Both the position numbers and the translations under genes were made by a program. A DNA stretch of 64,000 bases, from the IMG/VR virus record IMGVR_UViG_3300034272_002779; one strand, given 5' to 3'. Below the pieces are notes generated by a model. It was not told the DNA's origin, ran no database searches, and saw only the letters and a program-made list of their open reading frames with translations. How positions within the stretch are numbered: the first letter of the stretch is position 1; every line of letters begins with the position of its first letter. The stretch is from an uncultured virus (IMG/VR IMGVR_UViG_3300034272_002779) (lineage: Duplodnaviria; Heunggongvirae; Uroviricota; Caudoviricetes). Shown here piece after piece: positions 3,220 through 52,404 of this stretch.

Positions 3220-3297
3220 TTAAAAAAAGCCCGGGTTAATTTTTTATCCCGGGCTTTTTGTGTTATTTTTACTTCATAACCAATTAAAACAGAACAA

Positions 3298-3621
3298 ATG
3301 GAAAATGAAAAAAAATTATTCGTTGCCCAGGGATACGTACTAGGCAACTTATGGGGAGGAGGCCTAGGTGCCTACCCTACCATCACCATCTCAGGAGAAT
3401 CAGAAGAGATTGTACTTGAGCAAGCAGAGAAAGAACTAAAGACAGGAGGATTAGACCGAGGTATGGGATTCGAAAGCCTTACAGGAGCTTTGCTCAATAT
3501 TGAAAGAATCATTCATATAGAGATCGACGGTATGCCTTTCACCAACCGAACAACAACTCAGAAAACCATTGGGAACTTGGATGAAATGGATATTGAATTT
3601 CTAAAAGATCTGATCCCATGA
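3298..3621 (+). CDS. hypothetical protein
   Basis: ORF behind repeated promoter. Confidence 0.75.
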   Translation: MENEKKLFVAQGYVLGNLWGGGLGAYPTITISGESEEIVLEQAEKELKTGGLDRGMGFESLTGALLNIERIIHIEIDGMPFTNRTTTQKTIGNLDEMDIEFLKDLIP

Positions 3622-8710: not shown

Positions 8711-8824
8711 ATGGAAAAGATTGAGGTTACCATACAGGAAATCCAGATGGTCACAAGGCCTAATGTGTACAAGAATCGGAAGAAATACACCCGTAAAAAA
8801 AAGCATAAAAAAGACCCGGAATAA
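8711..8824 (+). CDS. 37 aa basic peptide
   Basis: MEKIEVTIQEIQMVTRPNVYKNRKKYTRKKKHKKDPE. Confidence 0.6.
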   Translation: MEKIEVTIQEIQMVTRPNVYKNRKKYTRKKKHKKDPE

Positions 8825-8882
8825 TTTTTTTATCCCGGGTTAGAACCTTACTTTTACTTTATAACCAATTAAAAAATATCCT

Positions 8883-9134
8883 ATGTCAGCTTCATTAGTT
8901 ACAATCACACACGAGGTTCTTAAGGAAAGACTTCGCAGAGGAACAGTTCGTTTCTACTTCAGAAAAACAGACGGATCCCTTCGCATCGCAATGGGAACAT
9001 TGGACCTCACAAGAGTTCCTACATCAGGTCAGCCTAAGGGTGGCAACGCACCACAAGGGGTAACCACTTTCTTCGACCTGGAGAAGAACGCTTGGAGATC
9101 GGTTTCCCACACTCAGCAAATTTGGATTGATTAA
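8883..9134 (+). CDS. WYL_2/SH3 beta-barrel (DUF2693-like) protein
   Basis: V.FYFRK.DGSLR.A.GTL ... FFDLEKNAWRS. Confidence 0.7.
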   Translation: MSASLVTITHEVLKERLRRGTVRFYFRKTDGSLRIAMGTLDLTRVPTSGQPKGGNAPQGVTTFFDLEKNAWRSVSHTQQIWID

Positions 9135-9158
9135 GTCTAACCACAAAAACACAAAGTC

Positions 9159-9395
9159 ATGTACATAGTAATCACGACACACCCCGACGGGGATTCATAC
9201 ATGGTAACGGCAGACCAAGGGAAAGCAAAGGCTCATTTCGATTCCGAGGTGGAACGATCCAGCGATTCAGTATTCTCAGATTCACAATGTCCGATATACC
9301 TGGCCGAGGTGAAAGACGGAGAGCGATTCGGATTTGGCGGTTGGGGAGAAATACATGGGTGCGAGATCCTCGAAGAGCATTATCCAGAGGATTAA
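9159..9395 (+). CDS. hypothetical protein
   Basis: ORF in operon. Confidence 0.65.
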   Translation: MYIVITTHPDGDSYMVTADQGKAKAHFDSEVERSSDSVFSDSQCPIYLAEVKDGERFGFGGWGEIHGCEILEEHYPED

Positions 9396-9452
9396 TTTTT
9401 TATCCCGAACTAAGTTCTTATATTTGATTCACAAACCAATTAAATTCACGAT

Positions 9453-9740
9453 ATGAACAAAAATCGAGATCCAAAGACTGGACGTTTTATTTCCTCAAAA
9501 GGAACAGGTCCACAAGCATCTTCAATGACAGTAGGTCAGAAGATTCACAAAGTCCTTACAGCAGGCATCAAGGTGTTTGGCAAAAAGGACATCTCAGGAA
9601 CACCAACCACAATGGCTCAAGGATCCTCGGTGATTCTAGAGAAGACATCCGAGATTGGTCCAACAGGAACAGCCGTTGTTCGAGTTAAGAAAGAAAACTC
9701 AACCCGCACGTTCTACACAGTAGAAGAGAACATTTCATAA
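9453..9740 (+). CDS. hypothetical basic protein
   Basis: RDPKTGRF motif; promoter upstream, terminator downstream. Confidence 0.7.
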   Translation: MNKNRDPKTGRFISSKGTGPQASSMTVGQKIHKVLTAGIKVFGKKDISGTPTTMAQGSSVILEKTSEIGPTGTAVVRVKKENSTRTFYTVEENIS

Positions 9741-39503: not shown

Positions 39504-39668
39504 TTTGTTCCTTTCTTTTCTATGTATATATCGCTAACTATATAAAAACCCATAGCCATTAATTTATGGGAGATTAGTAAAATTTTAATAAATTTCGTGT
39601 TTTTATTTTTTTCCCCGAGATACTGTTCTATATTTGATAATGTAAATCAATTAAAAAAAATAGAAATT

Positions 39669-40130
39669 ATGAAAACAAAAAACATCTTCAGCAAAGTAAC
39701 AGGATTGGTAATCGCTCTTACTTTAGTATTTTCTACAGCAGCTAAAGCTTCAGTAAATTCTAACCCGCAAAAGGACACCATTGAAATTGCGGTAAGGGAT
39801 CTAATCGCTAAAAATTACGGACAGATCAACGAGGATCCTAGATTAGGAAACGGGTTAAATAGCTATCTACACAAAAAAGTAACGGGGGAAGTGATTGAGG
39901 TTAAGGAGAATATCGCGGATGCTTACTACTCAGTATCTTTCGAAGGAACCGGTAGCTTGGATATGATTTTAGAAATTTTCCAAGAAAGATTCGATAAATT
40001 GAAAGCTGATGGATATCCTATTACCCCTGATAGATTCTTAATTAAGATCACAGAGGAGAATGGAAGAACATACGTAGCAGTTGCTTTAGATGAGACATAC
40101 GTCTATCCGCAGAGAATTGGAAATAAATAA
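39669..40130 (+). CDS. exported protein
   Basis: Signal peptide ending AKA; host-type promoter upstream. Confidence 0.7.
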   Translation: MKTKNIFSKVTGLVIALTLVFSTAAKASVNSNPQKDTIEIAVRDLIAKNYGQINEDPRLGNGLNSYLHKKVTGEVIEVKENIADAYYSVSFEGTGSLDMILEIFQERFDKLKADGYPITPDRFLIKITEENGRTYVAVALDETYVYPQRIGNK

Positions 40131-40197: not shown

Positions 40198-41526
40198 TTA
40201 TTTTTCTTTATCTTTAGGTAAATCGAATTCAAAAGTGATAGCATATTGGATGATCTCAACGCTATCTGCTTTGATCTCTCCATCAACAAGATATTCAATC
40301 TCCTTGTCTATTGTGTAAGAATCACCTAAAAGTACACCTTTAACGTCTAAATATACTTTTCTATATTTTTCATATTCTCCAGGAACGTCCTTAGCTTGAA
40401 TTTTACTGAAGTCGTCAGCTTTTACCGTAATTACACCTTTTAAGTCAGGATATAATGTTTCAAGATAAGTCTTAACCTCATTTGCACGATCAACAACTAA
40501 TTTTTTGTTGATTGGTCCTTGTCCATCAGGCTCATAAGAAGCACCACCAGTAATTACGATACTCTCAGGTTTACCTGCTAGAGGTGCAAGAGCAGCAGTA
40601 AGTAATTTGTCTATATTAGCTTTGTTTTTCAAATTAAGTTTAGCTGATCCCTTTTCAAACATAGCATCACCACCGTCAATTGGAACCTGATAAGCTTTAA
40701 CCTCTCCCTTAATTATATCCTTGGTAAAATCCTTCTTGATAAGGGTGTCAGGAATTGTGTCTCCTCCTCCCTGAACTACGTTACCTACTCCGTATATAAC
40801 AAATGTTGAATATGCTCTCGCATCGTCCTTTTTGTTGGCTGTCTTGTACGCGAATGTTAAATCTGGAATTACTTTTGAATCATTTCCAGGAGTTGCGGAG
40901 CTATTTCCGTTAAAATTTATTCCACTAGCAATACTAGCTATTAAAAATTGATCGTGGGCACCGCTGTTGTAAATATAGTCAGACTTACCACTATACCATT
41001 TTTTGTGCTTCTTGTCAGAACTCCCATAAGGAAAATCAACAGAATAATAAAGGTTACTTATATTAACTAATGTTAATAAGTCGTTGATATCTATCCATGC
41101 AGAATCCTTCATCATCTTTTCCAATTCTCCTCCATCTGCTCCCGTAGGAAGACCTATTGATGCAGCTAATTGAACCTTACCGTTGATTAAAGCTGGATAC
41201 ACAACTTTTTTTATCTCGGTTGTAGTTTTTTCTGTTATCTGTACTCTATCAGGATATACGACATTCTCATCTATCGCACTTTTAATTCCATTATTAAGGT
41301 CTCCTAATTGTTTTCCCATTAATGGTGCTATTTTACTATCTGATGCACTCGTAGGAGATTTATCATAAGCTAGTCTAGCTGCATCGAATCCCTTCTTAGC
41401 ATCTGCATCTAGAAAGGAACTATTTGAACTAAGGAAAGATTTAAAGTCCATGGGAGCCTCTTTTGCTTCATTAATGAACCTAACGAAAGAATTAAAACTT
41501 TCAAAAACTGGTCTGTTATTTTTCAT
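40198..41526 (-). CDS. tagged protein with C-terminal OmpA-like peptidoglycan-binding domain
   Basis: FEKGSA.L...ITGGAS...NKKL..DRANEVK.YL...YRKV. Confidence 0.65.
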   Translation of the reverse strand: MKNNRPVFESFNSFVRFINEAKEAPMDFKSFLSSNSSFLDADAKKGFDAARLAYDKSPTSASDSKIAPLMGKQLGDLNNGIKSAIDENVVYPDRVQITEKTTTEIKKVVYPALINGKVQLAASIGLPTGADGGELEKMMKDSAWIDINDLLTLVNISNLYYSVDFPYGSSDKKHKKWYSGKSDYIYNSGAHDQFLIASIASGINFNGNSSATPGNDSKVIPDLTFAYKTANKKDDARAYSTFVIYGVGNVVQGGGDTIPDTLIKKDFTKDIIKGEVKAYQVPIDGGDAMFEKGSAKLNLKNKANIDKLLTAALAPLAGKPESIVITGGASYEPDGQGPINKKLVVDRANEVKTYLETLYPDLKGVITVKADDFSKIQAKDVPGEYEKYRKVYLDVKGVLLGDSYTIDKEIEYLVDGEIKADSVEIIQYAITFEFDLPKDKEK

Positions 41527-41674
41527 GCTGTTTTATTTTTATTTTTCAAACTGTAAACTATATATCCAGACAAATTACATTTTTTTGGAATTTTAATCGG
41601 GATAGATCCGATAAAATTTTTTCCCAACGAGAAATATTATTATCTTTGTACTGTACAATTAATCACAACAAAAA

Positions 41675-41748
41675 GGTCCCGTAGCTCAGCTGGATAGAGC
41701 AACTGCCTTCTAAGCAGTAGGTCTCAGGTTCGAATCCTGACGGGATCA
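41675..41748 (+). tRNA. tRNA-Arg(UCU)
   Basis: Cloverleaf, anticodon loop CT-TCT-AA. Confidence 0.95.
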
Positions 41749-41774
41749 CTAAAGAGTTCTTTCAAATAACGAAT

Positions 41775-41856
41775 GCTTTCTTGGTGGAATTGGTAGCCCC
41801 GCTAGACTTAGGATCTAGTGCCGAGAGGTGTGAGAGTTCGAGTCTCTCAGGAAGTA
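41775..41856 (+). tRNA. tRNA-Leu(UAG), long variable arm
   Basis: Loop CT-TAG-GA. Confidence 0.9.
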
Positions 41857-41860
41857 CTCA

Positions 41861-41934
41861 GGTCCCTTAGCTCAGTTGGTTAGAGCAACTGACTCATAAT
41901 CAGTAGGTCCACGGTTCGAGCCCGTGAGGGACCA
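41861..41934 (+). tRNA. tRNA-CAU, probably Ile2
   Basis: Loop CT-CAT-AA; GGTCCCT acceptor resembles ileX-type tRNAs. Confidence 0.85.
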
Positions 41935-41948
41935 CAAAAATTAAAAAA

Positions 41949-42200
41949 ATGGAAACCCAGGAATCTTTAATAAAAAGAAACGAATCCAGAGACAAGCTAA
42001 TCCAAGAGCTTAATAATTTGGGTTATCTGGTCGTAACATATGACTACAATTATAGATTACCCGGGGATGAAAGAGTTTACCCCGATATAAGTGTTATGCA
42101 AAGTATTATTACAGATAAACACGGGGATTACATGGAATGCGAGATCGATAGTATAGTCGATGAAGAGGCTGATGACATGGATTTTTTGTGTAGGAAATAA
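41949..42200 (+). CDS. hypothetical protein
   Basis: ORF track. Confidence 0.65.
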   Translation: METQESLIKRNESRDKLIQELNNLGYLVVTYDYNYRLPGDERVYPDISVMQSIITDKHGDYMECEIDSIVDEEADDMDFLCRK

Positions 42201-42271
42201 CTATATGTTTATTTTTTTATCCCGTAATAGAACTTTACATTTAAGGATTATTAATTATTAAACCTTTAAAA

Positions 42272-42682
42272 ATGCAACTAGAAAATCTAAATCAGGTAAC
42301 TACTGAATTTAAGGATGGTCTAAACCGGGTAACTATCAAAGTTAAACACACAAATCCAGATGCGGAAGTTAATTTCACCGCTATTGGAATTGGTAGAGAC
42401 AAGAGAGAAGCCGCTATCTTTGGATTAGGTATGTTCTTTACCGTTATGGACGGACAAACTGAGGAGGGTGAGATAACGAGGGGAGAGGATGCAATTAGTA
42501 TTATTAACGAGTATTCTGGTATGGAAGACGTCGAAAAGATAATCTCAAACGATTTAGAAGTAAATCGACTTTTCAATTTCTATGAATCCACCGAGATAGA
42601 GTACCAATGGGACAAGACAGAAAACTCTAAACCAGGAGGATACATCTCAGAAATGGAAATATTGGAAGAAAGTTTTGAATAA
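42272..42682 (+). CDS. hypothetical acidic protein
   Basis: Early-type promoter upstream. Confidence 0.7.
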   Translation: MQLENLNQVTTEFKDGLNRVTIKVKHTNPDAEVNFTAIGIGRDKREAAIFGLGMFFTVMDGQTEEGEITRGEDAISIINEYSGMEDVEKIISNDLEVNRLFNFYESTEIEYQWDKTENSKPGGYISEMEILEESFE

Positions 42683-42751
42683 TTGAAAAAAATTATCTAA
42701 ATTAGCGAAACTAAAAATAGAGTCGATATATAAGACTCGAAACAAAGAAAA

Positions 42752-42874
42752 ATGAAAAACAAATTCGGAAATATCGTTAAACCGTTTATGCCTCAGGCTA
42801 ACGCACCGATTGCACAGGTGGGGTTTGCTAAGTGGTATAATGGCAACGCAAAAAATCCGGATTTGATTAGATGA
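42752..42874 (+). CDS. putative attenuator leader peptide 1 (40 aa)
   Basis: MKNKFGNIVKPFMPQANAPIAQVGFAKWYNGNAKNPDLIR; composition matches the downstream tRNAs. Confidence 0.75.
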   Translation: MKNKFGNIVKPFMPQANAPIAQVGFAKWYNGNAKNPDLIR

Positions 42875-42901
42875 TTAAATAAATAGATCACCATAACTAA
42901 G

Positions 42902-42936
42902 AAACTCCGGATCCACAAGATTCGGAGTTTTTTTTT
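42902..42936 (+). terminator. attenuator terminator 1
   Basis: AAACTCCGGATC-cacaa-GATTCGGAGTTT plus T-run, just before tRNA-Phe. Confidence 0.85.
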
Positions 42937-42938
42937 GC

Positions 42939-43011
42939 GGTGCGGTAGCTCAGTTGGTAGAGCACGGGACTGAAAATCCCGGTGTCGGCGGTTCGATCCC
43001 GCCCCGCACCA
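42939..43011 (+). tRNA. tRNA-Phe(GAA)
   Basis: Cloverleaf. Confidence 0.95.
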
Positions 43012-43041
43012 CTGAACTTTTAAGTTCTTTGAAATAAAAAT

Positions 43042-43119
43042 AGAGTAGTTGGCCAATTGGTAGGCCGCCTCATTTGGGATGAGGACATAGTGTCGGTTCG
43101 AGTCCGGTCTACTCTACCA
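43042..43119 (+). tRNA. tRNA-Pro(UGG), CCA encoded
   Basis: Cloverleaf, A1-U72. Confidence 0.9.
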
Positions 43120-43120
43120 C

Positions 43121-43194
43121 GGGGGGTTAGCTCAGTTGGCTAGAGCACTTGCCTTGCACGCAAGGGGTCATCGGTTCGAGTCCGATACTCTCCA
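43121..43194 (+). tRNA. tRNA-Ala(UGC)
   Basis: Cloverleaf, G3-U70. Confidence 0.95.
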
Positions 43195-43200
43195 CTAAAC

Positions 43201-43273
43201 ACGTCGGTAGCTCAGTTGGTAGAGCACTGGTCTCCAAAACCAGGTGTCGGAGGTTCGAGCCCTCCCCGGCGTG
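43201..43273 (+). tRNA. tRNA-Trp(CCA)
   Basis: Cloverleaf. Confidence 0.95.
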
Positions 43274-43283
43274 CAAACTACAG

Positions 43284-43354
43284 TGTCCTGTAGTGAAATG
43301 GCATCACACGGCGTTTTGGCCGCCGGGTTAGAGGTTCGAGTCCTCTCGGGACAA
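43284..43354 (+). tRNA. tRNA-Gln(UUG)
   Basis: Cloverleaf, U1-A72. Confidence 0.9.
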
Positions 43355-43384
43355 CTAAAGGTTCTTTGACATGTTGGCGTAAAT

Positions 43385-43458
43385 TGTCACGTAGCTCAGT
43401 TGGTTAGAGCATCTGACTGATACTCAGAAGGCCGGTGGTTCAAATCCACCCGTGACAA
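43385..43458 (+). tRNA. tRNA-Ile(GAU)
   Basis: Cloverleaf. Confidence 0.95.
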
Positions 43459-43518
43459 CTTAAAAATAAAGTAGTTAACTATGGAAAGTGACAAGAGCGA
43501 CAAGAGTCGCAAGAGAAT

Positions 43519-43593
43519 GATCTCGTAGCTCAGTTGGTTTAGAGCACCGCACTTTTAATGCGGGAGTCGTGGGTTCGAGTCCCACCGGGATCA
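43519..43593 (+). tRNA. tRNA-Lys(UUU)
   Basis: Cloverleaf. Confidence 0.95.
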
Positions 43594-43598
43594 CTTAA

Positions 43599-43712
43599 GG
43601 GCAGGACGCCTACTGGACCGATGCCGGGAGGTCGTTTGGAAGTGGTTAGAGGCCACAATTCATCTTTATCGGGGATGTCTGTTTGTAAAAGTCCAAGCGC
43701 TTGGTTCTGCCC
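43599..43712 (+). ncRNA. candidate rod-like structured RNA
   Basis: GGGCAGGAC/GTTCTGCCC closing stem, TGGAC/GTCCA, GTGG/CCAC. Confidence 0.5.
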
Positions 43713-43730
43713 CCGGTAACTAAACTATAA

Positions 43731-43805
43731 GGACTAGTAGCTCAGCTGGTTAGAAGCACATGACTGTTAATCATGGGGTCGTAGGTTCGAATCCTACCTA
43801 GTCCG
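43731..43805 (+). tRNA. tRNA-Asn(GUU)
   Basis: Cloverleaf. Confidence 0.93.
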
Positions 43806-43811
43806 CAATAA

Positions 43812-43883
43812 GCAGGTATCGTATAACGGTTATTACTTCTGACTTCCAATCAGAAGATTGGAGTTCGATTCTCCATACCTGCT
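43812..43883 (+). tRNA. tRNA-Gly(UCC)
   Basis: Cloverleaf, U73. Confidence 0.93.
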
Positions 43884-43958
43884 CACACGCAATTTCGTAC
43901 TTTGTTTAGATATACATGCCGGGTGATCCTCCCGTTGAATCACGGGAGCCGGCTCCAT

Positions 43959-44030
43959 AGCGAATTAGCTCAGAGGAAGAGCGTCCGGCTCATATCCGGA
44001 AGGTCGGGATCTCAGAATTCCCATTCGCTA
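43959..44030 (+). tRNA. tRNA-Met(CAU) with atypical T-loop
   Basis: Loop CT-CAT-AT; T arm GGGAT-CTCAGAA-TTCCC lacks TTC. Confidence 0.75.
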
Positions 44031-44052
44031 CTAAAAATAAAAAAATGATTTT

Positions 44053-44547
44053 TTATACCTGATTAAGAGTGGTGTCCCATTTACTTGTAGCTAGAAGCAT
44101 AAATCCCTGCAAGACGCTGCTAATTTCACCTAATATTGTGTCGTATGCTAGAAGACAAACATTTACTCTATCTTTTGCTATATCCTCCGGGGTTAATTCT
44201 TTGTCGTTTTTACACTGTGAGTGGACCATTAGCAAAACGCAAAGGACTAGGAATCTGTTTATTACTCGGGCCTCTCCTTTGAGTACAACTGCCTTCTCTC
44301 TTTTTATTTTAAAATCGATTAAGGCCTTTTCTAATGTTTTATAGTCTGGGTATTTGGCTTTGAACCTTAAATTTCCTCTCTTTGCTATTGCAGGATATAC
44401 TTTATCGCGGAGAAGCTCAGGGTATCTAAGTTCGTTTGAGTTCTCTTTAAATATAAAATCTAACATCATCGGAAATTCTGGAATTTGCTTACCCCAAACC
44501 CAGCTTTCATTGATAAAATCGTCGAATTCTAATAAATTTTTGTCCAT
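44053..44547 (-). CDS. tagged protein inserted antisense in the tRNA array
   Basis: MDKNLLEFDDFINES; ATATATA upstream. Confidence 0.75.
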   Translation of the reverse strand: MDKNLLEFDDFINESWVWGKQIPEFPMMLDFIFKENSNELRYPELLRDKVYPAIAKRGNLRFKAKYPDYKTLEKALIDFKIKREKAVVLKGEARVINRFLVLCVLLMVHSQCKNDKELTPEDIAKDRVNVCLLAYDTILGEISSVLQGFMLLATSKWDTTLNQV

Positions 44548-44627
44548 GACTATAATTTTGTTCGGATTATATATTTAATTATTTTTTTATCACGCATTTG
44601 ATACTTATCTTTGTATCAAATCAACTT

Positions 44628-44700
44628 AGTCTCTTAGCTCAGTTGGTAGAGCATCTGGTTTACATCCAGCGTGTCGCAGGTTCGATCCCTGCAGAGACTA
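44628..44700 (+). tRNA. tRNA-Val(UAC)
   Basis: Cloverleaf. Confidence 0.92.
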
Positions 44701-44713
44701 CGAATTTTAAAAA

Positions 44714-44796
44714 GGGTAGGTTGAGCAATTGGTTGGCTCGCCAGACTGTAAATCTGGTTCCTTCGGGGCGTGCAGGTTCGAATCCTGCCCTACCCA
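44714..44796 (+). tRNA. tRNA-Tyr(GUA)
   Basis: Cloverleaf with long variable arm. Confidence 0.93.
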
Positions 44797-44817
44797 CTAA
44801 CAATTAAAAACAAAAAA

Positions 44818-45204
44818 ATGAATCAAGAGAAAATCTCCGAGATGATTATGAAGCTGGAGCTCATCCCTTCAAGAATTGCAAAGCATTCAGTTGAGCTATT
44901 AGATCTCAACGAGAAACTGCAAGAATCCATAACTGAAATTAATCAATTAGAATCAGCGATTAAGTCTAGTGTTAATTCTGCAGAAGACGCCAACGGAAAA
45001 AAGCTTTACAGCAATGCGGAAGCTAGAGAGGCGGCTTTTTTACAGATCGCATTTGACGACGAGGATCTAAAGAGGTCTAAAGAGGTTCAGGCTGAGCTGC
45101 AGAGAAAAATATCATTGGAGCGTATCCAAATAGAAGCTCTTTCTAACGAGCAGAGGAATGCAAGAACAATAGTTCAATATTTTTCTTCCCTGCATGAAGT
45201 CTAA
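44818..45204 (+). CDS. coiled-coil protein
   Basis: Start MNQEKI; GKKLYSNAEAREA motif. Confidence 0.75.
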   Translation: MNQEKISEMIMKLELIPSRIAKHSVELLDLNEKLQESITEINQLESAIKSSVNSAEDANGKKLYSNAEAREAAFLQIAFDDEDLKRSKEVQAELQRKISLERIQIEALSNEQRNARTIVQYFSSLHEV

Positions 45205-45242
45205 TCGGAACATTAAGGTTTGTTCTAAATAAAAGATTGGTT

Positions 45243-45512
45243 ATGAATAAAATATATCTCCTTGCTTCATTTTTAGTGTGCATATATTCATGCAGCTCTA
45301 TTAAACCAGCTAAAGACAACATCTCGATAGAGTGGGAATATTCCGGAGCAGATAGTATCTCCCTGATGAAGGGAGATGAAGTACTGGTTCCCGGAATGCC
45401 GGTTGGGGAAACAAAACAGCTTCATCTGAACGGTTTCAGCAAGGGAAAATATAAGGTTGTAGTTTACGATAATTCTCAAGTGGTAGAACTTAAGACTTTT
45501 TCTCTCAGATAA
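45243..45512 (+). CDS. small lipoprotein, beta-sandwich-like
   Basis: Signal peptide ending YSC; GKYKVVV. Confidence 0.6.
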   Translation: MNKIYLLASFLVCIYSCSSIKPAKDNISIEWEYSGADSISLMKGDEVLVPGMPVGETKQLHLNGFSKGKYKVVVYDNSQVVELKTFSLR

Positions 45513-45513
45513 C

Positions 45514-45657
45514 ACTCTTTTAGTCTATATTGGTGCGGGAGTAAGTTCACCTTATCTAAATGGTAAGATCGGAGCTTGCTATTTCTACACTAAGGGTCTT
45601 AGCTCTGAAGAGGTAAGTCAGAATTTTAATGCAACAAAATCAAAATATTCTTTATAA
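45514..45657 (+). pseudogene. startless C-terminal fragment of a LamG/ConA-like domain
   Basis: VYIGAG..PYLNGKIGACYFYTKGLSSEEVSQNFNATKSKYSL*. Confidence 0.6.
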
Positions 45658-45730
45658 ATTTTTTTAATTCGAAACTTTTCTCTATTTTTGCATAGAAATT
45701 AAAAATCCGATAGGATATATAAAAACGCAA

Positions 45731-45826
45731 ATGAAAAATTTATTCCATATAGACCTAAGTTTACTCACATCGATATCGTCGTTGACATGTGATGAAACTA
45801 ACTGTGCTATGCTAAGGGATAAATAA
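45731..45826 (+). CDS. putative attenuator leader peptide 2 (31 aa)
   Basis: MKNLFHIDLSLLTSISSLTCDETNCAMLRDK; composition matches the downstream tRNAs. Confidence 0.75.
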   Translation: MKNLFHIDLSLLTSISSLTCDETNCAMLRDK

Positions 45827-45846
45827 CCATATTAATAATTAAATTT

Positions 45847-45879
45847 AAAAGGTCCCTTAGATTCTAAGGGACCTTTTTT
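45847..45879 (+). terminator. attenuator terminator 2
   Basis: AAAAGGTCCCTTAG-att-CTAAGGGACCTTTT plus T-run. Confidence 0.85.
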
Positions 45880-45914
45880 ATTTTGTGCGGTCTTTGACAT
45901 GTTGGAACTAGAAA

Positions 45915-45998
45915 GGGGGAGTAATTAAGCTGGCGCTTGACCTAGTCTTGAAAACTAGCGGTACCTTCGGGTATGGGGATCGATACCTCACTCCTCCG
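45915..45998 (+). tRNA. tRNA-Ser(UGA)
   Basis: Long variable arm, T-loop ATCGATA. Confidence 0.85.
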
Positions 45999-46003
45999 CA
46001 AAA

Positions 46004-46090
46004 GGAAAGTTGTCCGAGTGGTTTATGGAGCACGCTTGGAAAGCGTGTGCACCCGGAAGGGTGCCATAAGTTCGAATCCTATACTTTCCG
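46004..46090 (+). tRNA. tRNA-Ser(GGA)
   Basis: Long variable arm. Confidence 0.92.
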
Positions 46091-46095
46091 CAAAA

Positions 46096-46168
46096 GCCGG
46101 GGTAGCTCAATTGGTAGAGCTCTTGATTTGTAATCAAGTGGTTGTCAGTTCGATTCTGACCTCCGGAG
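46096..46168 (+). tRNA. tRNA-Thr(UGU)
   Basis: Cloverleaf with G1.A72 mismatch. Confidence 0.9.
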
Positions 46169-46175
46169 CAAATAC

Positions 46176-46248
46176 GTCACTGTGGCCGAGCCGGTTTAGG
46201 CGGGGGTCTGCAAAACCTCACACACAGGTTCGAATCCTGTCAGTGATT
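46176..46248 (+). tRNA. tRNA-Cys(GCA)
   Basis: Cloverleaf, U73. Confidence 0.92.
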
Positions 46249-46265
46249 CTAAAAAATAGGAAACT

Positions 46266-46688
46266 ATGGAAAAGGAAGAAAAGATCGAGAACATTAAAAA
46301 TGCGATCGCTGCCGAAAAGGCTGAAAGAGAGAGAAAAAGGAAAGAGTATTGGTGTAATCTTCCTAAATTTGAGAAGGCACATGATGTACCGACTATACCT
46401 AGAGTGGATGAAGAAGAATATAGAAATTTCTACGTACCAAAACTAATAGAGGCTGGTGCTATTCCAAAGAAAGATCTTGTTGACGGTCAGCTCTACTATG
46501 GTGATTATAGAAATGCAGAAGTTGGTAAATGGAATGCTAAAGAAAACGTTTTTGATCATTGGAGATACAAATTTGGATTCAGAAAGGATACGTGCAACCA
46601 CTTCGAAGATGATGACGGGTTTGCATTATTCGTTCCTATTAGATTAGCTAACGAAGAAGAGATAGAAGAATATCTCAATACAAAATAA
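46266..46688 (+). CDS. conserved phage hypothetical protein
   Basis: IPKKDL.DG..Y.G.YRNA...W....F...R.KFG......HFEDDDGFALFVP. Confidence 0.8.
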   Translation: MEKEEKIENIKNAIAAEKAERERKRKEYWCNLPKFEKAHDVPTIPRVDEEEYRNFYVPKLIEAGAIPKKDLVDGQLYYGDYRNAEVGKWNAKENVFDHWRYKFGFRKDTCNHFEDDDGFALFVPIRLANEEEIEEYLNTK

Positions 46689-46693
46689 TACAC

Positions 46694-46771
46694 GGTGTGC
46701 GTAGCTCAGTTGGTTAGAGCGTCTGATTGTGGTTCAGAAGGTCGGCAGTTCGATCCTGCTCGTGCACCCCA
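46694..46771 (+). tRNA. tRNA-His(GUG)
   Basis: G-1/C73, CCA encoded. Confidence 0.93.
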
Positions 46772-46772
46772 T

Positions 46773-46843
46773 GCCTCGATAGCTCAAGGGTAGAGCATCG
46801 CTTTGGTATAGCGGGGATATGGGTTCGATTCCCATTTGAGGAT
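46773..46843 (+). tRNA. tRNA-Thr(GGU)
   Basis: Cloverleaf with G1.A72 mismatch. Confidence 0.88.
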
Positions 46844-46853
46844 CTTGACCAAT

Positions 46854-46927
46854 GTTCCCGTAGCCCAACAGGCAGAGGCAATGGACTTAAAATCCATACA
46901 GTAACGGTTCGAATCCGTTCGGGAATA
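46854..46927 (+). tRNA. tRNA-Leu(UAA), short variable loop
   Basis: Loop CT-TAA-AA; variable region ACAGT. Confidence 0.88.
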
Positions 46928-46933
46928 CTAAAT

Positions 46934-47013
46934 AGGTGTGTATCCCCTCATGCTTATACCATGTAGAAAGGGTAGTTGGTTACACGAGGGTTCAAGTCCC
47001 TCCGCACCTACCA
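46934..47013 (+). ncRNA. non-canonical tRNA-like RNA with UAU anticodon
   Basis: Acceptor AGGTGTG/CGCACCT-A-CCA, normal T arm, no D arm in the usual place, loop CT-TAT-AC. Confidence 0.7.
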
Positions 47014-47022
47014 ATAAACAAT

Positions 47023-47096
47023 ACCTCGGTAGCCCAATTGGCAGAGGCGCTAGATTTAGGATCTAGTTAGTGTGGGTTCGAATCCCACTCGAGGTA
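47023..47096 (+). tRNA. tRNA-Leu(UAG), short variable loop
   Basis: Loop TT-TAG-GA. Confidence 0.88.
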
Positions 47097-47102
47097 CAGA
47101 AA

Positions 47103-47188
47103 GGAAAGTAATGCTCGATGGTGAGAGTGCCCGCCTGCTAAGCGAGGTGTCCGGGAAACCGGATGTGGTTCGATTCCACTGCTTTCCG
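47103..47188 (+). tRNA. tRNA-Ser(GCU)
   Basis: Long variable arm, G73. Confidence 0.82.
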
Positions 47189-47253
47189 CTTAATTTTTTT
47201 TTTAATTCGGGAAACAATATTAAATTTGGATCATAAATAATAAGAATAAACAT

Positions 47254-47328
47254 CGCGGGTTAGACTGGAGGTGGTTCCCAGCTCGGTCTCATAAGCCGAA
47301 GACACAGGTTCGAATCCTGTACCCGCTA
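47254..47328 (+). tRNA. initiator-type tRNA-fMet(CAU)
   Basis: CGCGGG start with unpaired C1; loop CT-CAT-AA. Confidence 0.85.
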
Positions 47329-47356
47329 CTTCTAGTAGTTCTTTGAACTAAAAATA

Positions 47357-47565
47357 TTGATAGTGGTCTTCCCCACCCAACGGATGTCGACAATCCAGGA
47401 GTGGAACCGGAATTCATCACCCTTTCTGCCGAGGCCTCGTAAAACTACGATTAAGCAGTTAAGATTGGAGCGAGATGGGTACTCCATCACTATCGATAAC
47501 ATTGGGCCAGATCAAGCCTCTTGCGAAAGCAACGTAATCTGCCTCCGTAACCACGCCGGAGGAAT
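47357..47565 (+). ncRNA. candidate structured RNA(s)
   Basis: GATAGTG/CACTATC closing stem, internal hairpins, GAAA tetraloop hairpin, CCTCCG/CGGAGG. Confidence 0.45.
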
Positions 47566-47569
47566 TTAA

Positions 47570-47643
47570 GGTCCGTTAGTAGAGTTGGTTACAACGCCGC
47601 CCTGTCACGGCGGAGGTCAGGGGTTCGAATCCCCTACGGACCG
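47570..47643 (+). tRNA. tRNA-Asp(GUC)
   Basis: Cloverleaf. Confidence 0.95.
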
Positions 47644-47647
47644 CAAC

Positions 47648-47920
47648 GAGTAAGAGGTACTCGCTTCGTTTTTGACTACGATAAAAGGTCACGGTTAATG
47701 TCCAGGTGGTAACCGGAATTGGTATTGAAGGGCTCCTATCTCTTAGGTAGGTATGGGTCAATATCATTAAAATACTGGAACTGAGATTAAAGGCAGGTAG
47801 CAGAGCCTCTCAGTAGCTTGACAGGTTTTTATGTGGTAAGACACTAATGAAAGTAATGGTTCTCGAAACAGCAAGAGAAACCCGTTAAAATCTAGCTTAG
47901 CAAATCTCACTAAGCGAAAC
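47648..47920 (+). ncRNA. candidate structured RNA(s)
   Basis: Stems CGGTTA/TAACCG, TGGTATTGA/TCAATATCA, ACTGAG/CTCAGT, GCTTAG/CTAAGC. Confidence 0.45.
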
Positions 47921-47922
47921 TT

Positions 47923-47994
47923 GGTCCCTTCGTCTATCGGTTAGGACGTTAGGTTTTCATCCTAGAAAGAGGGGTTCGATTCCCCTAGGGACTA
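47923..47994 (+). tRNA. tRNA-Glu(UUC)
   Basis: Cloverleaf. Confidence 0.93.
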
Positions 47995-48004
47995 CAAATT
48001 AAAT

Positions 48005-48118
48005 GGTGTAAAAGGACCAGACGATGACTCGGTATTACTGCCCGAGATACTAGTTCAGCAGCATGGTAGGTGACAGAGTACGTAGTCTGGTGAGACGGGT
48101 TCGATTCCCTCTACACCA
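48005..48118 (+). ncRNA. tRNA-like RNA with acceptor stem and T arm around a long insert
   Basis: GGTGTA/TACACC-A, GGG-TTCGATT-CCC, ACCAGAC/GTCTGGT stem. Confidence 0.6.
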
Positions 48119-48329
48119 CGATTCTCGGAGGAATGTTAGAGAAAAAACCCGATTATGAGGAAAGAGGGTTTGATTTCTATCTGGGAATTTTTTTAATTGT
48201 TTCTATAAAGCTGAGAATGTTTACGGTATTAGTTTACTGTAAACATTTTTGGTTTTTAGAGGTGTAGTTTTGGTTAATCCTGATATATAGATAGAGGTCT
48301 AAACACCTCATAAAAATAACCAAACAAAC

Positions 48330-48659
48330 ATGTTAAAATTTCTAAGAGATCTTTTCAATGACAACAACGACATCAATGAAAAATCAGTAGTTGGGTTTCT
48401 TTCTTTCCTTGCTATGGTTGCTGCTATGATAGTAGATCTAATCACTGGAGCTTTAGGAAAGGAGCTTTTAATTAACGAATTCATCTTCGATGGATTCCTT
48501 ATTATCACGCTGGGATCATTCGGTATTGCAGCAGTAGATAAATGGGTAACTAAAAGGGCAGATAATGTTAGACATAAATCTAACTTAGATGCTGGTTTGA
48601 ACCCTGAAGATCCATCTAATTCAGAAGACCCTATCGACTCTCCTACAGAGGATCAATAA
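48330..48659 (+). CDS. holin-like two-TM membrane protein
   Basis: Two TM segments, charged tail, late-type promoter. Confidence 0.55.
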   Translation: MLKFLRDLFNDNNDINEKSVVGFLSFLAMVAAMIVDLITGALGKELLINEFIFDGFLIITLGSFGIAAVDKWVTKRADNVRHKSNLDAGLNPEDPSNSEDPIDSPTEDQ

Positions 48660-48687
48660 GGATATATAGTTTAAAAATAAAGCTAAG

Positions 48688-49158
48688 ATGGCTTATAGAA
48701 TAATACTCAGAAGAGATGGTTCTACAAATTGGGAATCACAAAATCCAGTTCTTTTATTAGGAGAACCGGGATATGAAACAGATACTGGTAAATTTAAGAT
48801 TGGTGACGGATCTAGTATGTGGTCTGATTTGGACTACTATGTAGGAGCTACGGGAGGTACCGGTGCAACAGGAGCTGTTGGAATTACCGGTGCAACTGGA
48901 AGTGTCGGTGCAACTGGAGCTACCGGAGTAACTGGTCCAACCGGAGCTACCGGGGTTACTGGTCCAACCGGAGCTGCTGGTACTGGACCTAATACTTTCT
49001 ATGGTAATCAAACTATTGTTGGGGGAACATCAGGAACATTAATTCTCTCTGGTTATTCGGTTCTTAATTTTCCGGACGATCCTAGTGCTGCTACTGGCGG
49101 TGTACCTCTGGGAGGATTTTATCATAACGCTGGAGCTTTAAGAATCAGAATATCTTAA
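48688..49158 (+). CDS. collagen-like fibre protein
   Basis: LRR....W...[21 protein letters not shown]-terminal domain plus GxT repeats. Confidence 0.8.
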
Positions 49159-49240: not shown

Positions 49241-50278
<1,038 letters not shown>

Positions 50279-50346: not shown

Positions 50347-52404
50347 ATGAGCTACGACGACGAAATGGATGACATCCAACAAAACAAGAATAAAGTACCT
50401 GGAAAAACTCCAGTTCTGGATTCATATTCTAGAGATCTAACAGAGATGGCAGCTAAAGGGCAACTGGATCCAATTATAGGTAGAGACGAGGAGATCGAGA
50501 GAGTTTCTCAGATTCTATCTAGAAGAAAAAAGAATAATCCGGTTCTTATTGGAGAGCCCGGTGTAGGTAAATCTGCAATTGCAGAAGGTCTGGCTTTAAA
50601 GATTGTTCAGAGGAAAGTTTCGCGTACTCTACTAAATAAAAGAGTGCTAACTCTAGATCTAGGATCACTAGTTGCTGGAACTAAGTACAGAGGACAATTT
50701 GAGGAAAGAATTAAAGCAATTTTAGAAGAGCTTAAAGCAAACACTAATGTTATTATATTCATCGATGAGATCCACACTATGGTTGGCGCTGGTGGTGCTT
50801 CAGGTTCACTTGATGCTTCTAATATGTTTAAACCCCCACTAGCTAGAGGAGAGATACAGTGTATAGGTGCTACCACTCTTAATGAATACCGTCAGCACAT
50901 AGAGAAAGACGGTGCACTGGAAAGAAGGTTTCAGAAGGTACTAGTAAATCCACCAGATTCTGATACGACATTAGAAATTCTAGATAACATAAAAGCTAAA
51001 TATGAGGACCATCATAATGTTACTTATACGGAGGATGCGATAGTTAACTGTGTTAAGCTAACAGAAAGATACATTACCGATAGGAACTTCCCAGATAAAG
51101 CTCTAGACGCATTAGATGAAGCGGGGAGTAGAACACAACTTAGCGACGTGAAGGTTCCTGATTCGATAACAGCATTAGAAAAAAATCTGGAGCAAACTCA
51201 AAAAACAAAAAAAGAAGCAGTAGCTAAACAAGACTATGAGGGGGCTGCAAAATACCGTGACCAGGAAAGAAAAATTAAAATCTCACTTGATACTGAAATA
51301 AAAATCTGGGAAGAAAAACTAAAATCTAAAAGAAAGATAGTAGACGGGGAGAAGGTAGCTGAGGTCGTATCTATGATGTCAGGAATCCCCCTTAAGAAAG
51401 TTTCGGAAACCGAAAATGAAAGACTGGCCGTAATGTCTACCGAGTTAAAAGGTAAGGTAATAGGACAGGATCACGTAATAGAAAAAGTATCCCGAGCAAT
51501 ATTAAGAAACAGAATGGGATTAAAGGATCCAAATAAGCCAATCGGATCTTTCCTTTTTCTTGGTCCAACTGGAGTAGGTAAAACCCAACTAGCAAAAGAA
51601 TTAGCCGAATATATGTTTGGTGATAGGGATGCTATGATCAGAGTAGATATGAGTGAATACTCGGAAAAATTTGATGCTACTAAATTAATCGGAGCACCTC
51701 CGGGATATGTGGGCCACGATGAAGGTGGACAACTTACCGAGAAGGTAAGAAGAAAACCATATTCAATTGTTCTTTTTGACGAGATAGAAAAAGCACATCC
51801 GGAAATATTTAATTCTCTTCTCCAGATACTAGATGAAGGAAATATCACCGACAGCTTAGGTAGAAAAATAAACTTTAAGAACACTTTGATAATTCTTACC
51901 TCTAATGTTGGTCAGAGAAAACTTCAGGACTTTGGACCGGGTGTAGGATTTTCCACATCAACTAAAGCCAAATCTTCGGATCTGGAGAATGAAATGCTTT
52001 TAAAGAAAGAATTACAGAAAACATTTTCTCCAGAATTTATAAACAGACTGGATGATATTATTTACTTCAAAAATCTAGATAGAGAACATCTAATAAAAAT
52101 TCTAGACGTTGAACTATCTCGTGTTATACCTAGATTGGAATCATTGGGATACAAGATAAAGATTGCTGATGATTTAAAGAATAAAATATGTGAGGATGGA
52201 TTCGATCCTAAATTCGGTGCTAGACCACTTAAAAGAATCATGCAGAAGTACATAGAAGACACTCTAGCAGACTTAATGGTCCAGAATAAGATAGAGAATG
52301 GTTCTACCATAATTTTGTCCTATGACGTCAAAAAAGAAGGCGGAATAGAAAATCCAGTTAAGGTTAAAATAAATAATAAAAGAAAACCCAAGGACAATGA
52401 TTAA
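50347..52404 (+). CDS. clpC: ClpC-like AAA+ chaperone lacking the N-terminal Clp domain
   Basis: Two AAA modules ([16 protein letters not shown]), GYVG loop, UVR-type linker ([13 protein letters not shown]). Confidence 0.92.

Follow-up and report, generated by a model that had tools for sequence, protein, structure and literature searches.

Leader-peptide attenuators are known from enterobacteria, with thrL (Thr and Ile), ilvL of ilvGMEDA (Ile, Leu and Val), trpL, hisL and pheL as examples, and the pheM leader of E. coli pheST attenuates an aminoacyl-tRNA synthetase operon. Here we analysed a stretch of 64,000 nt from the uncultured virus IMGVR_UViG_3300034272_002779 (Caudoviricetes), hereafter the window, in which a 31-codon leader open reading frame (ORF) and an intrinsic terminator precede an array of phage tRNA genes. 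An earlier note on the sequence had described this unit as a tRNA-sensing attenuator. The sequence predictions of that reading all held and recurred with different sequences in relatives, and we consider it likely that the unit acts on the array as a ribosome-mediated (leader-peptide) transcription attenuator, reading how fast the codons served by those tRNAs are decoded. Coordinates are positions in the window, and all parts listed in Table 1 lie on the + strand.

Like the thrL and ilvL attenuators, the unit combines a presumably translated leader carrying regulatory codons, a choice between helices 1:2/3:4 and 2:3, a region 2 that a ribosome on the stop codon would mask, an intrinsic terminator with a U-run and more than one sensed amino acid; here these traits are known from sequence. 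It differs from them in that phage tRNA genes rather than biosynthetic enzymes are regulated, in that the leader samples 8 amino acids and 11 anticodons, each one to three times, where those leaders carry runs of one to three amino acids, and in that the feedback would act on tRNA supply and not on amino-acid supply; no sequence or Rfam relationship connects them. With pheM/pheST it shares leader-peptide attenuation of a gene of the translation apparatus, charged tRNA being sensed through ribosome speed, whereas pheM/pheST involves one amino acid, a protein product and a cellular setting. T-box riboswitches also make the choice of terminator or antiterminator before translation-related genes depend on the tRNA pool, but they bind uncharged tRNA directly, free of ribosomes and with one specifier codon. 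Over 41000–49000, the T-box model gave no match at E ≤ 1 and no Rfam leader family reached its cut-off (best PyrG_leader, 33.3 bits against a cut-off of 65, and GibS, 28.6 against 115). Full-text searches of the literature outside subscription journals yielded no description of a leader peptide or attenuator before tRNA genes. New here are viral tRNA genes as the target, broad one-to-three-fold sampling of many codons, and the proposed feedback on tRNA supply.

The leader core is written in codons of its own tRNA array

A short ORF with a start codon lies in the 5' leader, 9 nt past the gene-start motif GATATATA, and its frame is kept open in relatives. The ORF is enriched in codons that report the regulated supply: codons 6–23, described in the earlier note as limited to amino acids of the array, fall within that set in 18 of 18 cases. 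Seventeen are strictly readable by array anticodons under Watson-Crick and standard wobble pairing, CTC being the sole core codon matched by amino acid only. The core samples 8 amino acids and 11 of the 13 array anticodons, each anticodon one to three times.

The array amino-acid set accounts for 0.479 of the 12,882 residues in 49 long window ORFs, which gives a probability of 1.7e-6 for 18/18 if residues are independent and identically distributed (iid). Among real window proteins, none of 12,049 18-mers was wholly within the set. When 314 ATG ORFs of 20–60 aa in all six frames were compared, the longest in-set run was that of the leader (18 codons), with a runner-up of 11. This first rank, the absence of in-set 18-mers and the derangement and covariation tests described below bear out the earlier judgement that a chance match is unlikely.

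Predicted helices connect the end of the leader to the terminator

Between the leader ORF and the tRNAs lies an intrinsic terminator, a 10-bp GC-rich hairpin with a T-run (45851–45884). The hairpin itself, GGTCCCTTAG-att-CTAAGGGACC at 45851–45873, is preceded by AAAA and followed by the T-run (45847–45879), and the distance from the leader stop codon to the hairpin is 24–25 nt. The minimum free energy (MFE) of the leader-terminator RNA was −42.7 kcal/mol (z = −6.1), a value that none of 200 shuffles equalled. The MFE structure consists of a helix 1:2 together with the terminator 3:4, and 1:2 was also present in the centroid structure. Helix 1:2, which the earlier note did not mention, pairs ORF nt 8–16 (ATTTATTCC) with nt 86–94 (GGGATAAAT, adjoining the stop codon).

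The alternative helix was obtained when the 3' arm was left out of the fold: ORF nt 82–90, CTAAGGGAT, then paired over 9 bp with the 5' arm GTCCCTTAG, and the resulting 2:3 antiterminator stops 6 nt short of the last base of the stop codon. The octamer CTAAGGGA (45812–45819), just before the stop, is indeed an exact copy of the terminator 3' arm, and its proposed capture of the 5' arm is upheld both by this fold and by control duplexes. The duplex of region 2 with the 5' arm has −13.5 kcal/mol, and 0.44% of 11,608 control 40-mers were as good (fraction 0.0044), the control being all 40-mers from the same source. In these predicted structures the RNA has four regions as in classical attenuators, 1:2 plus 3:4 versus 2:3, and a ribosome on the stop codon would cover region 2.

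Leader and array covary among relatives

Relatives were sought in public contigs with an exact 31–33-mer of the Ser(uga)-like tRNA, a gene of the array and not of the leader, and the tRNA content of related loci was taken from ARAGORN. The 53 loci comprise 6 viral and 44 metagenome loci, the window, and two uncultured phages of 630–640 kb. A hairpin with T-run lay at most 450 nt upstream of the Ser(uga)-like tRNA in 48 of the 53, and all 48 of these terminator-bearing loci had an ATG ORF of 24–53 codons that ended less than 90 nt before the hairpin; in two of the five loci lacking an upstream hairpin the match was at the very start of the locus. By count from the listing, the 48 loci hold 24 distinct leader peptides. 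The window leader was identical in L028 and L060, and variants of it were found in 9 further sequences.

Leaders of the window type are called type A. Type B is MKNLFHTSTSSSTSTTSCDEDNLRYTKG, type C is MKNLFHTVTSLTTLTSSLCDESTCALLRDR, type D is MKQVQYTLSSLHLDTTSTSCELSLCVEKEKVLV, from a complete phage of 373,485 bp, and type E is MKTLTTTSLSLWHSLSPSRCSVLVRDGKFFE. A large Ser/Arg type (e.g. MKTIINTSKSSSRSSKMSEVRLYS) stands before Arg-Ser-Ser-Ser-Arg arrays, and further types include His/Phe/Trp/Lys leaders and Lys mini-leaders (MKTKRKYKR before three tRNA-Lys). Leader composition followed array content. The type B array is without Leu tRNAs and the UAU RNA described below, and its leader core is without Leu and Ile; the type D array is without the UAU RNA, and its core is without Ile. 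In type E, with an array of Ser, Cys, His, Trp, Arg, Pro, Ser, Thr, Leu and Leu, Asp, Glu and Ile have disappeared from the core and Trp, Pro and Arg have entered it, in step with the array. Across six A–E representatives and 20 amino acids (120 cells), presence in the core against presence in the array gave a two-by-two table with rows of 67 and 6 and of 6 and 41 (Fisher 3e-19); two of the six arrays end at the locus edge, which accounts for some of the exceptions. For eight family representatives, the matched leader-array z scores summed to 24.7, a value reached by none of 14,833 derangements (mean 2.4, maximum 13.1).

The pattern of change differed along the leader. Core length changed in multiples of three (−6, +3, +6 and +30 nt in A–D), and the middle of the leader varied freely within the allowed amino acids among A, B, C and D. 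Type B differs from A by a net −5 nt that puts region 2 in another frame, yet its stop is still inside GGGATAA. Because B changes frame and still stops in GGGATAA while core indels remain in-frame, the 3' end is constrained as RNA and the middle in composition only, not as a peptide. Helix 1:2 was also found in A2, A3, B and C types and in the leader of the partner unit (leader 1), and atgaaaaatttattccat in region 1 was unchanged across all A, B and C type leaders. A mutually exclusive 2:3 helix was formed by other sequences in D, E, G and I types and in phage phi4:1, the pairs being AGGAGA/TCTCCT in D and GGTCCG/CGGATC in E. In all 14 of the 14 units compared, the duplex of leader end and 5' arm was stronger than the mean of the controls (control fractions 0.003–0.15), and Fisher's method over 9 non-homologous units gave 1.1e-8. 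The T-run TTTTTTATTTT was retained in all A–D relatives.

The 642-kb and 635-kb uncultured phages (LR756502.1 and LR745206.1) carry specialised leaders (L007 1219–1375 and 3708–3840; L008 2533–2690 and 3782–3910): Ser/Arg-rich before Arg-Ser-Ser-Ser-Arg, His/Phe/Trp/Lys-rich before His-Phe-His-Phe-Trp, and a Lys mini-leader before tRNA-Lys arrays. The mini-leaders, MKTKRKYKR and MKTKLKYKR, are each followed by a hairpin before the tRNA-Lys arrays (L007 1879–1908, L008 ~3289–3318).

When 45400–48300 was compared with a phage collection by blastn, 221 records matched, in tRNA genes only and over at most 5% of the query, and no syntenic cultured relative was found; the best matches were Cellulophaga phages (5% query cover). 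The nearest virus record, G001 (289,651 bp), had no match to 41500–48300 or to 50347–52404. It showed one 87% match, to 39584–39741, with no tRNAs in the neighbouring 20 kb and one tRNA overall; although G001 has no match in the tRNA region, 73% of the words sampled from the window are reportedly shared with it. Rfam at gathering score over 20 related loci gave tRNA rows only among the 150 matches listed.

A cultured phage carries the same kind of units

Cellulophaga phage phi4:1 (NC_021788.1) has two leader-terminator units, at ~87,067–87,190 and ~88,025–88,165, each behind an identical 38-nt promoter-like block. The first leader, MKIQRLHLQELEQPIISGGTGV, and its terminator are followed by Pro-Glu-Gln-His-Leu-Leu-Arg tRNAs, and its core QRLHLQELEQP is a strict match in 11 of 11 codons. 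The second leader is annotated as gp075 (…TKTGITVIDKTKGARAYLGDTVIG) and stands with its terminator before Ala-Lys-Ile-Gly-Met-Asp-Thr-Val-Arg-Met-Tyr; its frame is written in T, K, G, I, V, D, A, R and Y, with 23 of 26 codons in-set. The block before both units, about 38 nt long (aatttgttttatccaattatttgttgtatgtttgccaa; L062 3020–3067 and 3960–4007), is probably a duplicated promoter. An element resembling the Ser(uga)-like tRNA (L062 6100–6200) is annotated as coding sequence gp076, probably a false gene call.

A partner unit in the window covers the complementary amino acids

The window contains a partner, unit 1, upstream of the unit described so far. Its leader has an in-set run of 36 codons in the complementary set of Phe, Pro, Ala, Trp, Gln, Ile, Lys, Asn, Gly, Met, Val and Tyr (next best 12; iid P 3.3e-9), and its RNA has the same helix layout (z = −5.5). 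The two leaders divide the amino acids as the two tRNA blocks do, as had been claimed, and the division holds down to the codon level: Ile codons are ATC and ATT in leader 1, with tRNA-Ile(GAU) in block 1, and only ATA in leader 2, with the UAU RNA in block 2. In unit 1 only 2 nt separate the T-run from tRNA-Phe, which leaves no room there for a promoter.

Several other elements were seen around block 1. The sequence TATCTTTG, of the −7 box type, stands directly before an Arg-Leu-Met block (41641–41935) and before a Val-Tyr pair (44608–44797), neither with a leader ORF or terminator. The Val-Tyr pair is parted from block 1 by an opposite-strand ORF of 164 aa (44053–44547), and Val and Tyr codons are still present in leader 1. 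A mini ORF, MESDKSDKSRKRMIS (43482–43529), has four AAG Lys codons and a threefold GACAAGAG repeat and overlaps the 5' end of tRNA-Lys(uuu) (43519) with no terminator between, comparable to the Lys mini-leaders of L007 and L008.

Probable promoter signals and an rrn-type boxA motif flank the proposed attenuator

The window holds 20 copies of the motif GATATATA where 5.4 are expected, a count reached in none of 100 shuffles, and an ATG ORF of at least 30 aa starts 4–68 nt after every copy (20/20). Because all copies precede ORFs, it is a gene-start signal of this phage; if it is a promoter, the leader mRNA would be nearly leaderless. A second, putative signal is TATTTTTG, which fits TAnnTTTG, the consensus of the Bacteroidota −7 promoter box. 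It lies within a block conserved in the 373-kb relative, with cgaaacttttc-ctatttttgcatagaaattaaaa also in L010.

Behind the terminator lies TCTTTGACATGTTGG, which contains the boxA-like site of the earlier note (CTTTGACATGTTGG, 45892–45905). The motif TCTTTGACATRTTGG was unchanged at this place in all A–D relatives, between variable flanks; the motif was not found in E-type or Arg/Ser-type units, which retain ORF and terminator. In ribosomal RNA (rrn) operons, boxA antitermination depends on NusB/NusE, and E. coli has boxA in the leader and in the 16S-23S spacer. The pattern matched at least 121 loci in bacterial genomes, many of them Bacteroidota, and 20 Bacteroidota-named loci were hand-picked from 80 listed to locate it. 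In 12 it followed 16S or spacer tRNAs and preceded the 23S 5' end, with all on one strand; 4 had spacer tRNAs upstream and the 23S side past the locus end, 1 had it antisense in the 23S-5S spacer, and 3 showed no RNA gene. In the Bacteroidota rrn operons TCTTTGACATRTTGG comes after spacer tRNAs and ~80–200 nt before 23S, the position that the rrn spacer boxA has in E. coli, and it resembles the E. coli boxA core CTCTTTAACA. This placement in Bacteroidota rrn spacers supports the boxA call. Unlike rrn boxA, the motif here lies behind an attenuator in a phage tRNA array; the two are likened by sequence and position. A boxA after the attenuator fits an order in which the decision comes first and polymerase processivity afterwards.

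We also considered the TTGACA of the spacer as a −35 box and rejected it, as neither the window nor L010 has a −10-like hexamer 17 nt further on and the motif is found in rrn spacers. Neither TAnnTTTG nor GATATATA was seen in the 39-nt spacer between hairpin and first tRNA. The second exact copy of the boxA-type motif in the window (43363–43377) is in block 1, between tRNA-Gln and tRNA-Ile, and the 373-kb relative has a boxA variant at the equivalent place (L015 ~8712), followed by an ORF (8813–9470) where the window has tRNA-Ile.

Organization of the tRNA region

ARAGORN found 25 tRNA genes within 41675–47995. Every element that the earlier note had given for the second unit (motif, 31-aa leader, terminator, boxA-like site and tRNAs) was recovered where it had been placed (Table 1), with qualifications about three of the RNAs. 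The fMet gene of the note is a Met(cau) gene and a putative initiator. Two of the three Ser tRNAs are plain ARAGORN genes; the third, Ser(uga), was called at a lowered threshold only and was not matched by Rfam at E ≤ 1. A 31-mer of it is exact in 52 other loci, including the 630–640-kb phages, and its T region, GGGGATCGATACC, is odd. Lowered-threshold calls were retained for this gene and for Ser(gcu) of L013; those lying in ORFs, e.g. Ser(cga) at 46573–46652, were dismissed as false. The UAU RNA is present as well, as a non-canonical tRNA-like element to which Rfam gives a weak tmRNA-clan match only. It has a CUUAUAC anticodon loop and a canonical T arm and acceptor, without a normal D arm. 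Its core is identical in L053, L056 and L060, and it was found only where the leader carries ATA codons.

Table 1. Positions of the elements of both leader-terminator units and of the array behind the second
Feature	Position	Strand	Basis
Partner unit 1: GATATATA	42725–42732	+	Sequence
Partner unit 1: 40-codon leader	42752–42874	+	ORF list
Partner unit 1: terminator	42905–42936	+	Sequence, fold
Partner unit 1: tRNA-Phe start	42939	+	ARAGORN
TATTTTTG, fits Bacteroidota −7 box; putative	45683–45690	+	Sequence; function inferred
Gene-start motif GATATATA, probable phage promoter, 9 nt before leader ATG	45714–45721	+	Over-representation
Leader ORF: ATG, 31 codons including the start, then TAA; peptide MKNLFHIDLSLLTSISSLTCDETNCAMLRDK	45731–45826	+	Sequence reading, ORF list
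Region 1 ATTTATTCC, leader codons 3–6; partner of region 2 when ribosome-free	45738–45746	+	MFE folds
Sensing core HIDLSLLTSISSLTCDET, leader codons 6–23	45746–45799	+	Codon-anticodon comparison
Region 2 CTAAGGGATAAAT, adjoins stop codon 45824–45826; alternative partners region 1 or terminator 5' arm	45812–45824	+	Folds
Region 3, terminator 5' arm GGTCCCTTAG	45851–45860	+	Sequence, fold
Region 4, terminator 3' arm CTAAGGGACC and T-run TTTTTTATTTT	45864–45884	+	Sequence, fold
rrn-spacer boxA-type motif TCTTTGACATGTTGG	45891–45905	+	Exact twice in window
tRNA Ser(uga)-like	45915–45999	+	ARAGORN at lowered threshold only
tRNA Ser(gga)	46004–46091	+	ARAGORN
tRNA Thr(ugu)	46096–46169	+	ARAGORN
tRNA Cys(gca)	46176–46249	+	ARAGORN
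140-aa ORF within array, phrog_18490, no function from Pfam/PHROGs	46266–46688	+	ORF list
tRNA His	46695–46771	+	ARAGORN
tRNA Thr(ggu)	46773–46844	+	ARAGORN
tRNA Leu(uaa)	46854–46928	+	ARAGORN
UAU tRNA-like RNA	~46934–47013	+	Sequence reading, weak Rfam match
tRNA Leu(uag)	47023–47097	+	ARAGORN
tRNA Ser(gcu)	47103–47189	+	ARAGORN
tRNA Met(cau)	47254–47329	+	ARAGORN
tRNA Asp	47570–47644	+	ARAGORN
tRNA Glu	47923–47995	+	ARAGORN

Pfam and PHROGs assigned no function to the small ORFs of the tRNA region. The arrays of A–D relatives have a gap of ~446 nt at the place of the 140-aa ORF, and a comparison of this ORF with viral contigs gave 46 pattern matches with no relative among them. Structured stretches that received no assignment lie between tRNA Asp and tRNA Glu; over both tRNA blocks, 43595–43730, 43885–43958, 47330–47569, 47645–47922 and 47996–48112 have neither an ORF nor an Rfam or ARAGORN assignment, the last of them terminating in T-arm/acceptor-like sequence. 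Downstream, two ORFs with long Gly-X-Y (collagen-like) repeats and a common N-terminal domain (48688–49158 and 49241–50278), each after GATATATA, are followed by a ClpB/ClpC-type double AAA+ ATPase (50347–52404).

Contigs from four public runs were compared with the array. Two true metatranscriptomes contained exact pieces of it, e.g. 46190–46340, 45922–46037 and 47692–47847, and exact contigs from two metatranscriptome runs cover 47692–47847 and 47693–47816 among the unassigned stretches. The contigs that cross 45799–46000 come from two runs that are probably DNA. No metatranscriptome piece spans or ends at the terminator, and contigs cannot reveal ends or levels; the public RNA contigs support neither side on attenuation.

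A model for ribosome-mediated control of the array

Sequence and comparison with relatives show the ORF, its three alternative helices, the match of codons to anticodons, the covariation of this match among phages, and a boxA motif identical to that of rrn spacers; from them we infer leader translation, its coupling to polymerase, read-through dependent on stalling, and the physiological trigger. Transcription would begin at GATATATA, at the host-type −7 box or at both, and a ribosome would initiate on the 31-codon leader. If codons 6–23 are decoded fast, the ribosome would arrive at the stop and sit on region 2, so that 3:4 forms and polymerase halts before the tRNAs. Should a shortage of the charged tRNA hold the ribosome at any core codon, region 1 would be held or left behind and region 2 would be free to pair with the 5' arm once this is made, and polymerase would read on. 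Beyond the terminator, the rrn-type boxA may make polymerase processive over the long untranslated array. Additional tRNAs for Ser, Thr, Cys, His, Leu, Ile-AUA, Asp and Glu would then remove the signal, giving negative feedback on tRNA supply. With no translation at all, 1:2 and 3:4 would form and transcription would stop. The direction of control follows from the anatomy: because the stop codon is 24–25 nt before the terminator, a terminating ribosome is expected to mask region 2 without being able to melt the hairpin.

Other explanations were weighed against the same evidence, and they fail mainly because of the covariation, the late position of boxA and the 2–17 nt gaps between terminator and tRNA in sister units. 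The conserved rrn-type boxA would suit a factor-dependent switch in which a protein, either the host Nus complex acting through boxA or a phage antiterminator, overrides the terminator and the ORF senses nothing. However, boxA is downstream of the terminator and is transcribed too late to act there, E-type and Arg/Ser-type units keep ORF and terminator without it, and the codon-anticodon match and its covariation would be left unexplained; we regard such a switch as improbable. It is also decidedly unlikely that the leader is translated with an output other than attenuation, its RNA or peptide acting in trans or the ribosome position governing RNase processing or precursor stability. The ORF is intact across relatives, the leader 1 peptides of two phages align across much of their length, and trans-acting attenuator RNAs and peptides are described from rhizobia; set against this, the middle of leader 2 is conserved in composition only and not in sequence, type B shifts frame at its 3' end, and the 2:3 helix is retained with different sequences.

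An ordinary small gene followed by a constitutive terminator, with the tRNAs transcribed from a promoter in the 39-nt spacer and the codons matching by chance, is very hard to credit. Although GATATATA also precedes ordinary genes and the spacer motif includes TTGACA, chance is excluded by the ORF ranking, the derangements and the covariation table, no −10-like hexamer lies 17 nt past TTGACA, and the motif is located in rrn spacers and not in promoters. Sister units leave only 2–17 nt between terminator and tRNA; in Arg/Ser-type units the first tRNA begins 12–17 nt past the hairpin, with no room for a promoter. Scarcely credible is a T-box-like riboswitch in which uncharged tRNA binds the leader RNA and stabilises the antiterminator: it would apply the same terminator/antiterminator logic upstream of translation-related genes, but Rfam gave no T-box or other leader family at threshold, many codons are involved and not one specifier, and the start codon and open frame are conserved.

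Several observations weigh against attenuation by a codon-reading ribosome, or narrow it. Codons 2, 3 and 5 (Lys, Asn and Phe) fall within region 1, and their tRNAs belong to the other block; a ribosome stalled at them should likewise cause read-through, as cross-talk; the non-cognate K2, N3 and F5 at the leader start are explained by that location. The array anticodons gga and cau are unsampled in the core, and decoding of CTC requires a U34 that reads all four codons. The 39-nt spacer between hairpin and first tRNA, with its conserved motif, could hold a promoter of another type, and the Val and Tyr tRNAs of unit 1 stand behind an opposite-strand gene with their own −7 box. Among relatives, the 2:3 control was weak (0.14–0.15) in 3 of 14 units, the 53-aa ORF of L035 showed no enrichment (P = 0.88), the His/Phe-type leaders L019, L007b and L008b were 20–42% in-set, and leader 1 of the 373-kb relative has 4 Ile codons with no Ile tRNA in the array by ARAGORN. 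The model assumes that transcription and translation are coupled in Bacteroidota and that the start site is chosen on an almost leaderless mRNA, and the sensor cannot separate tRNA shortage from amino-acid starvation.

Implications for phage tRNA genes

The regulation of virus-encoded tRNAs is essentially unknown, and the attenuator proposed here offers a concrete logic for it: supply on demand under ribosome-read negative feedback. It bears on why phages carry tRNAs, for which codon usage, host tRNA decay and tRNA-targeting defences have been considered, as the sensor would respond to the very quantity on which these models differ. The device occurs in a cultured pair, Cellulophaga baltica and phage phi4:1, and is therefore bench-testable. 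Annotation is corrected too, in that small 'hypothetical proteins' annotated among phage tRNAs can turn out to be leaders, as for gp075, or tRNA-like genes called wrongly, as is probable for gp076, and natural multi-codon speed sensors are potential reporters of decoding capacity.

As a more tentative extension, codon-sampling attenuators might be a general control class of Bacteroidota-phage tRNA arrays that serve as alarms for lost host decoding capacity, in which depletion of any one tRNA species of an array, by an anticodon nuclease as a host defence or by phage-induced host shut-off, would stall the ribosome on the matching leader codon and turn that array on. If this were true, leaders and arrays would co-evolve, which would explain why the tRNA genes are split into blocks, and this would be the first known cis-regulatory mechanism that sets tRNA gene transcription by decoding demand.

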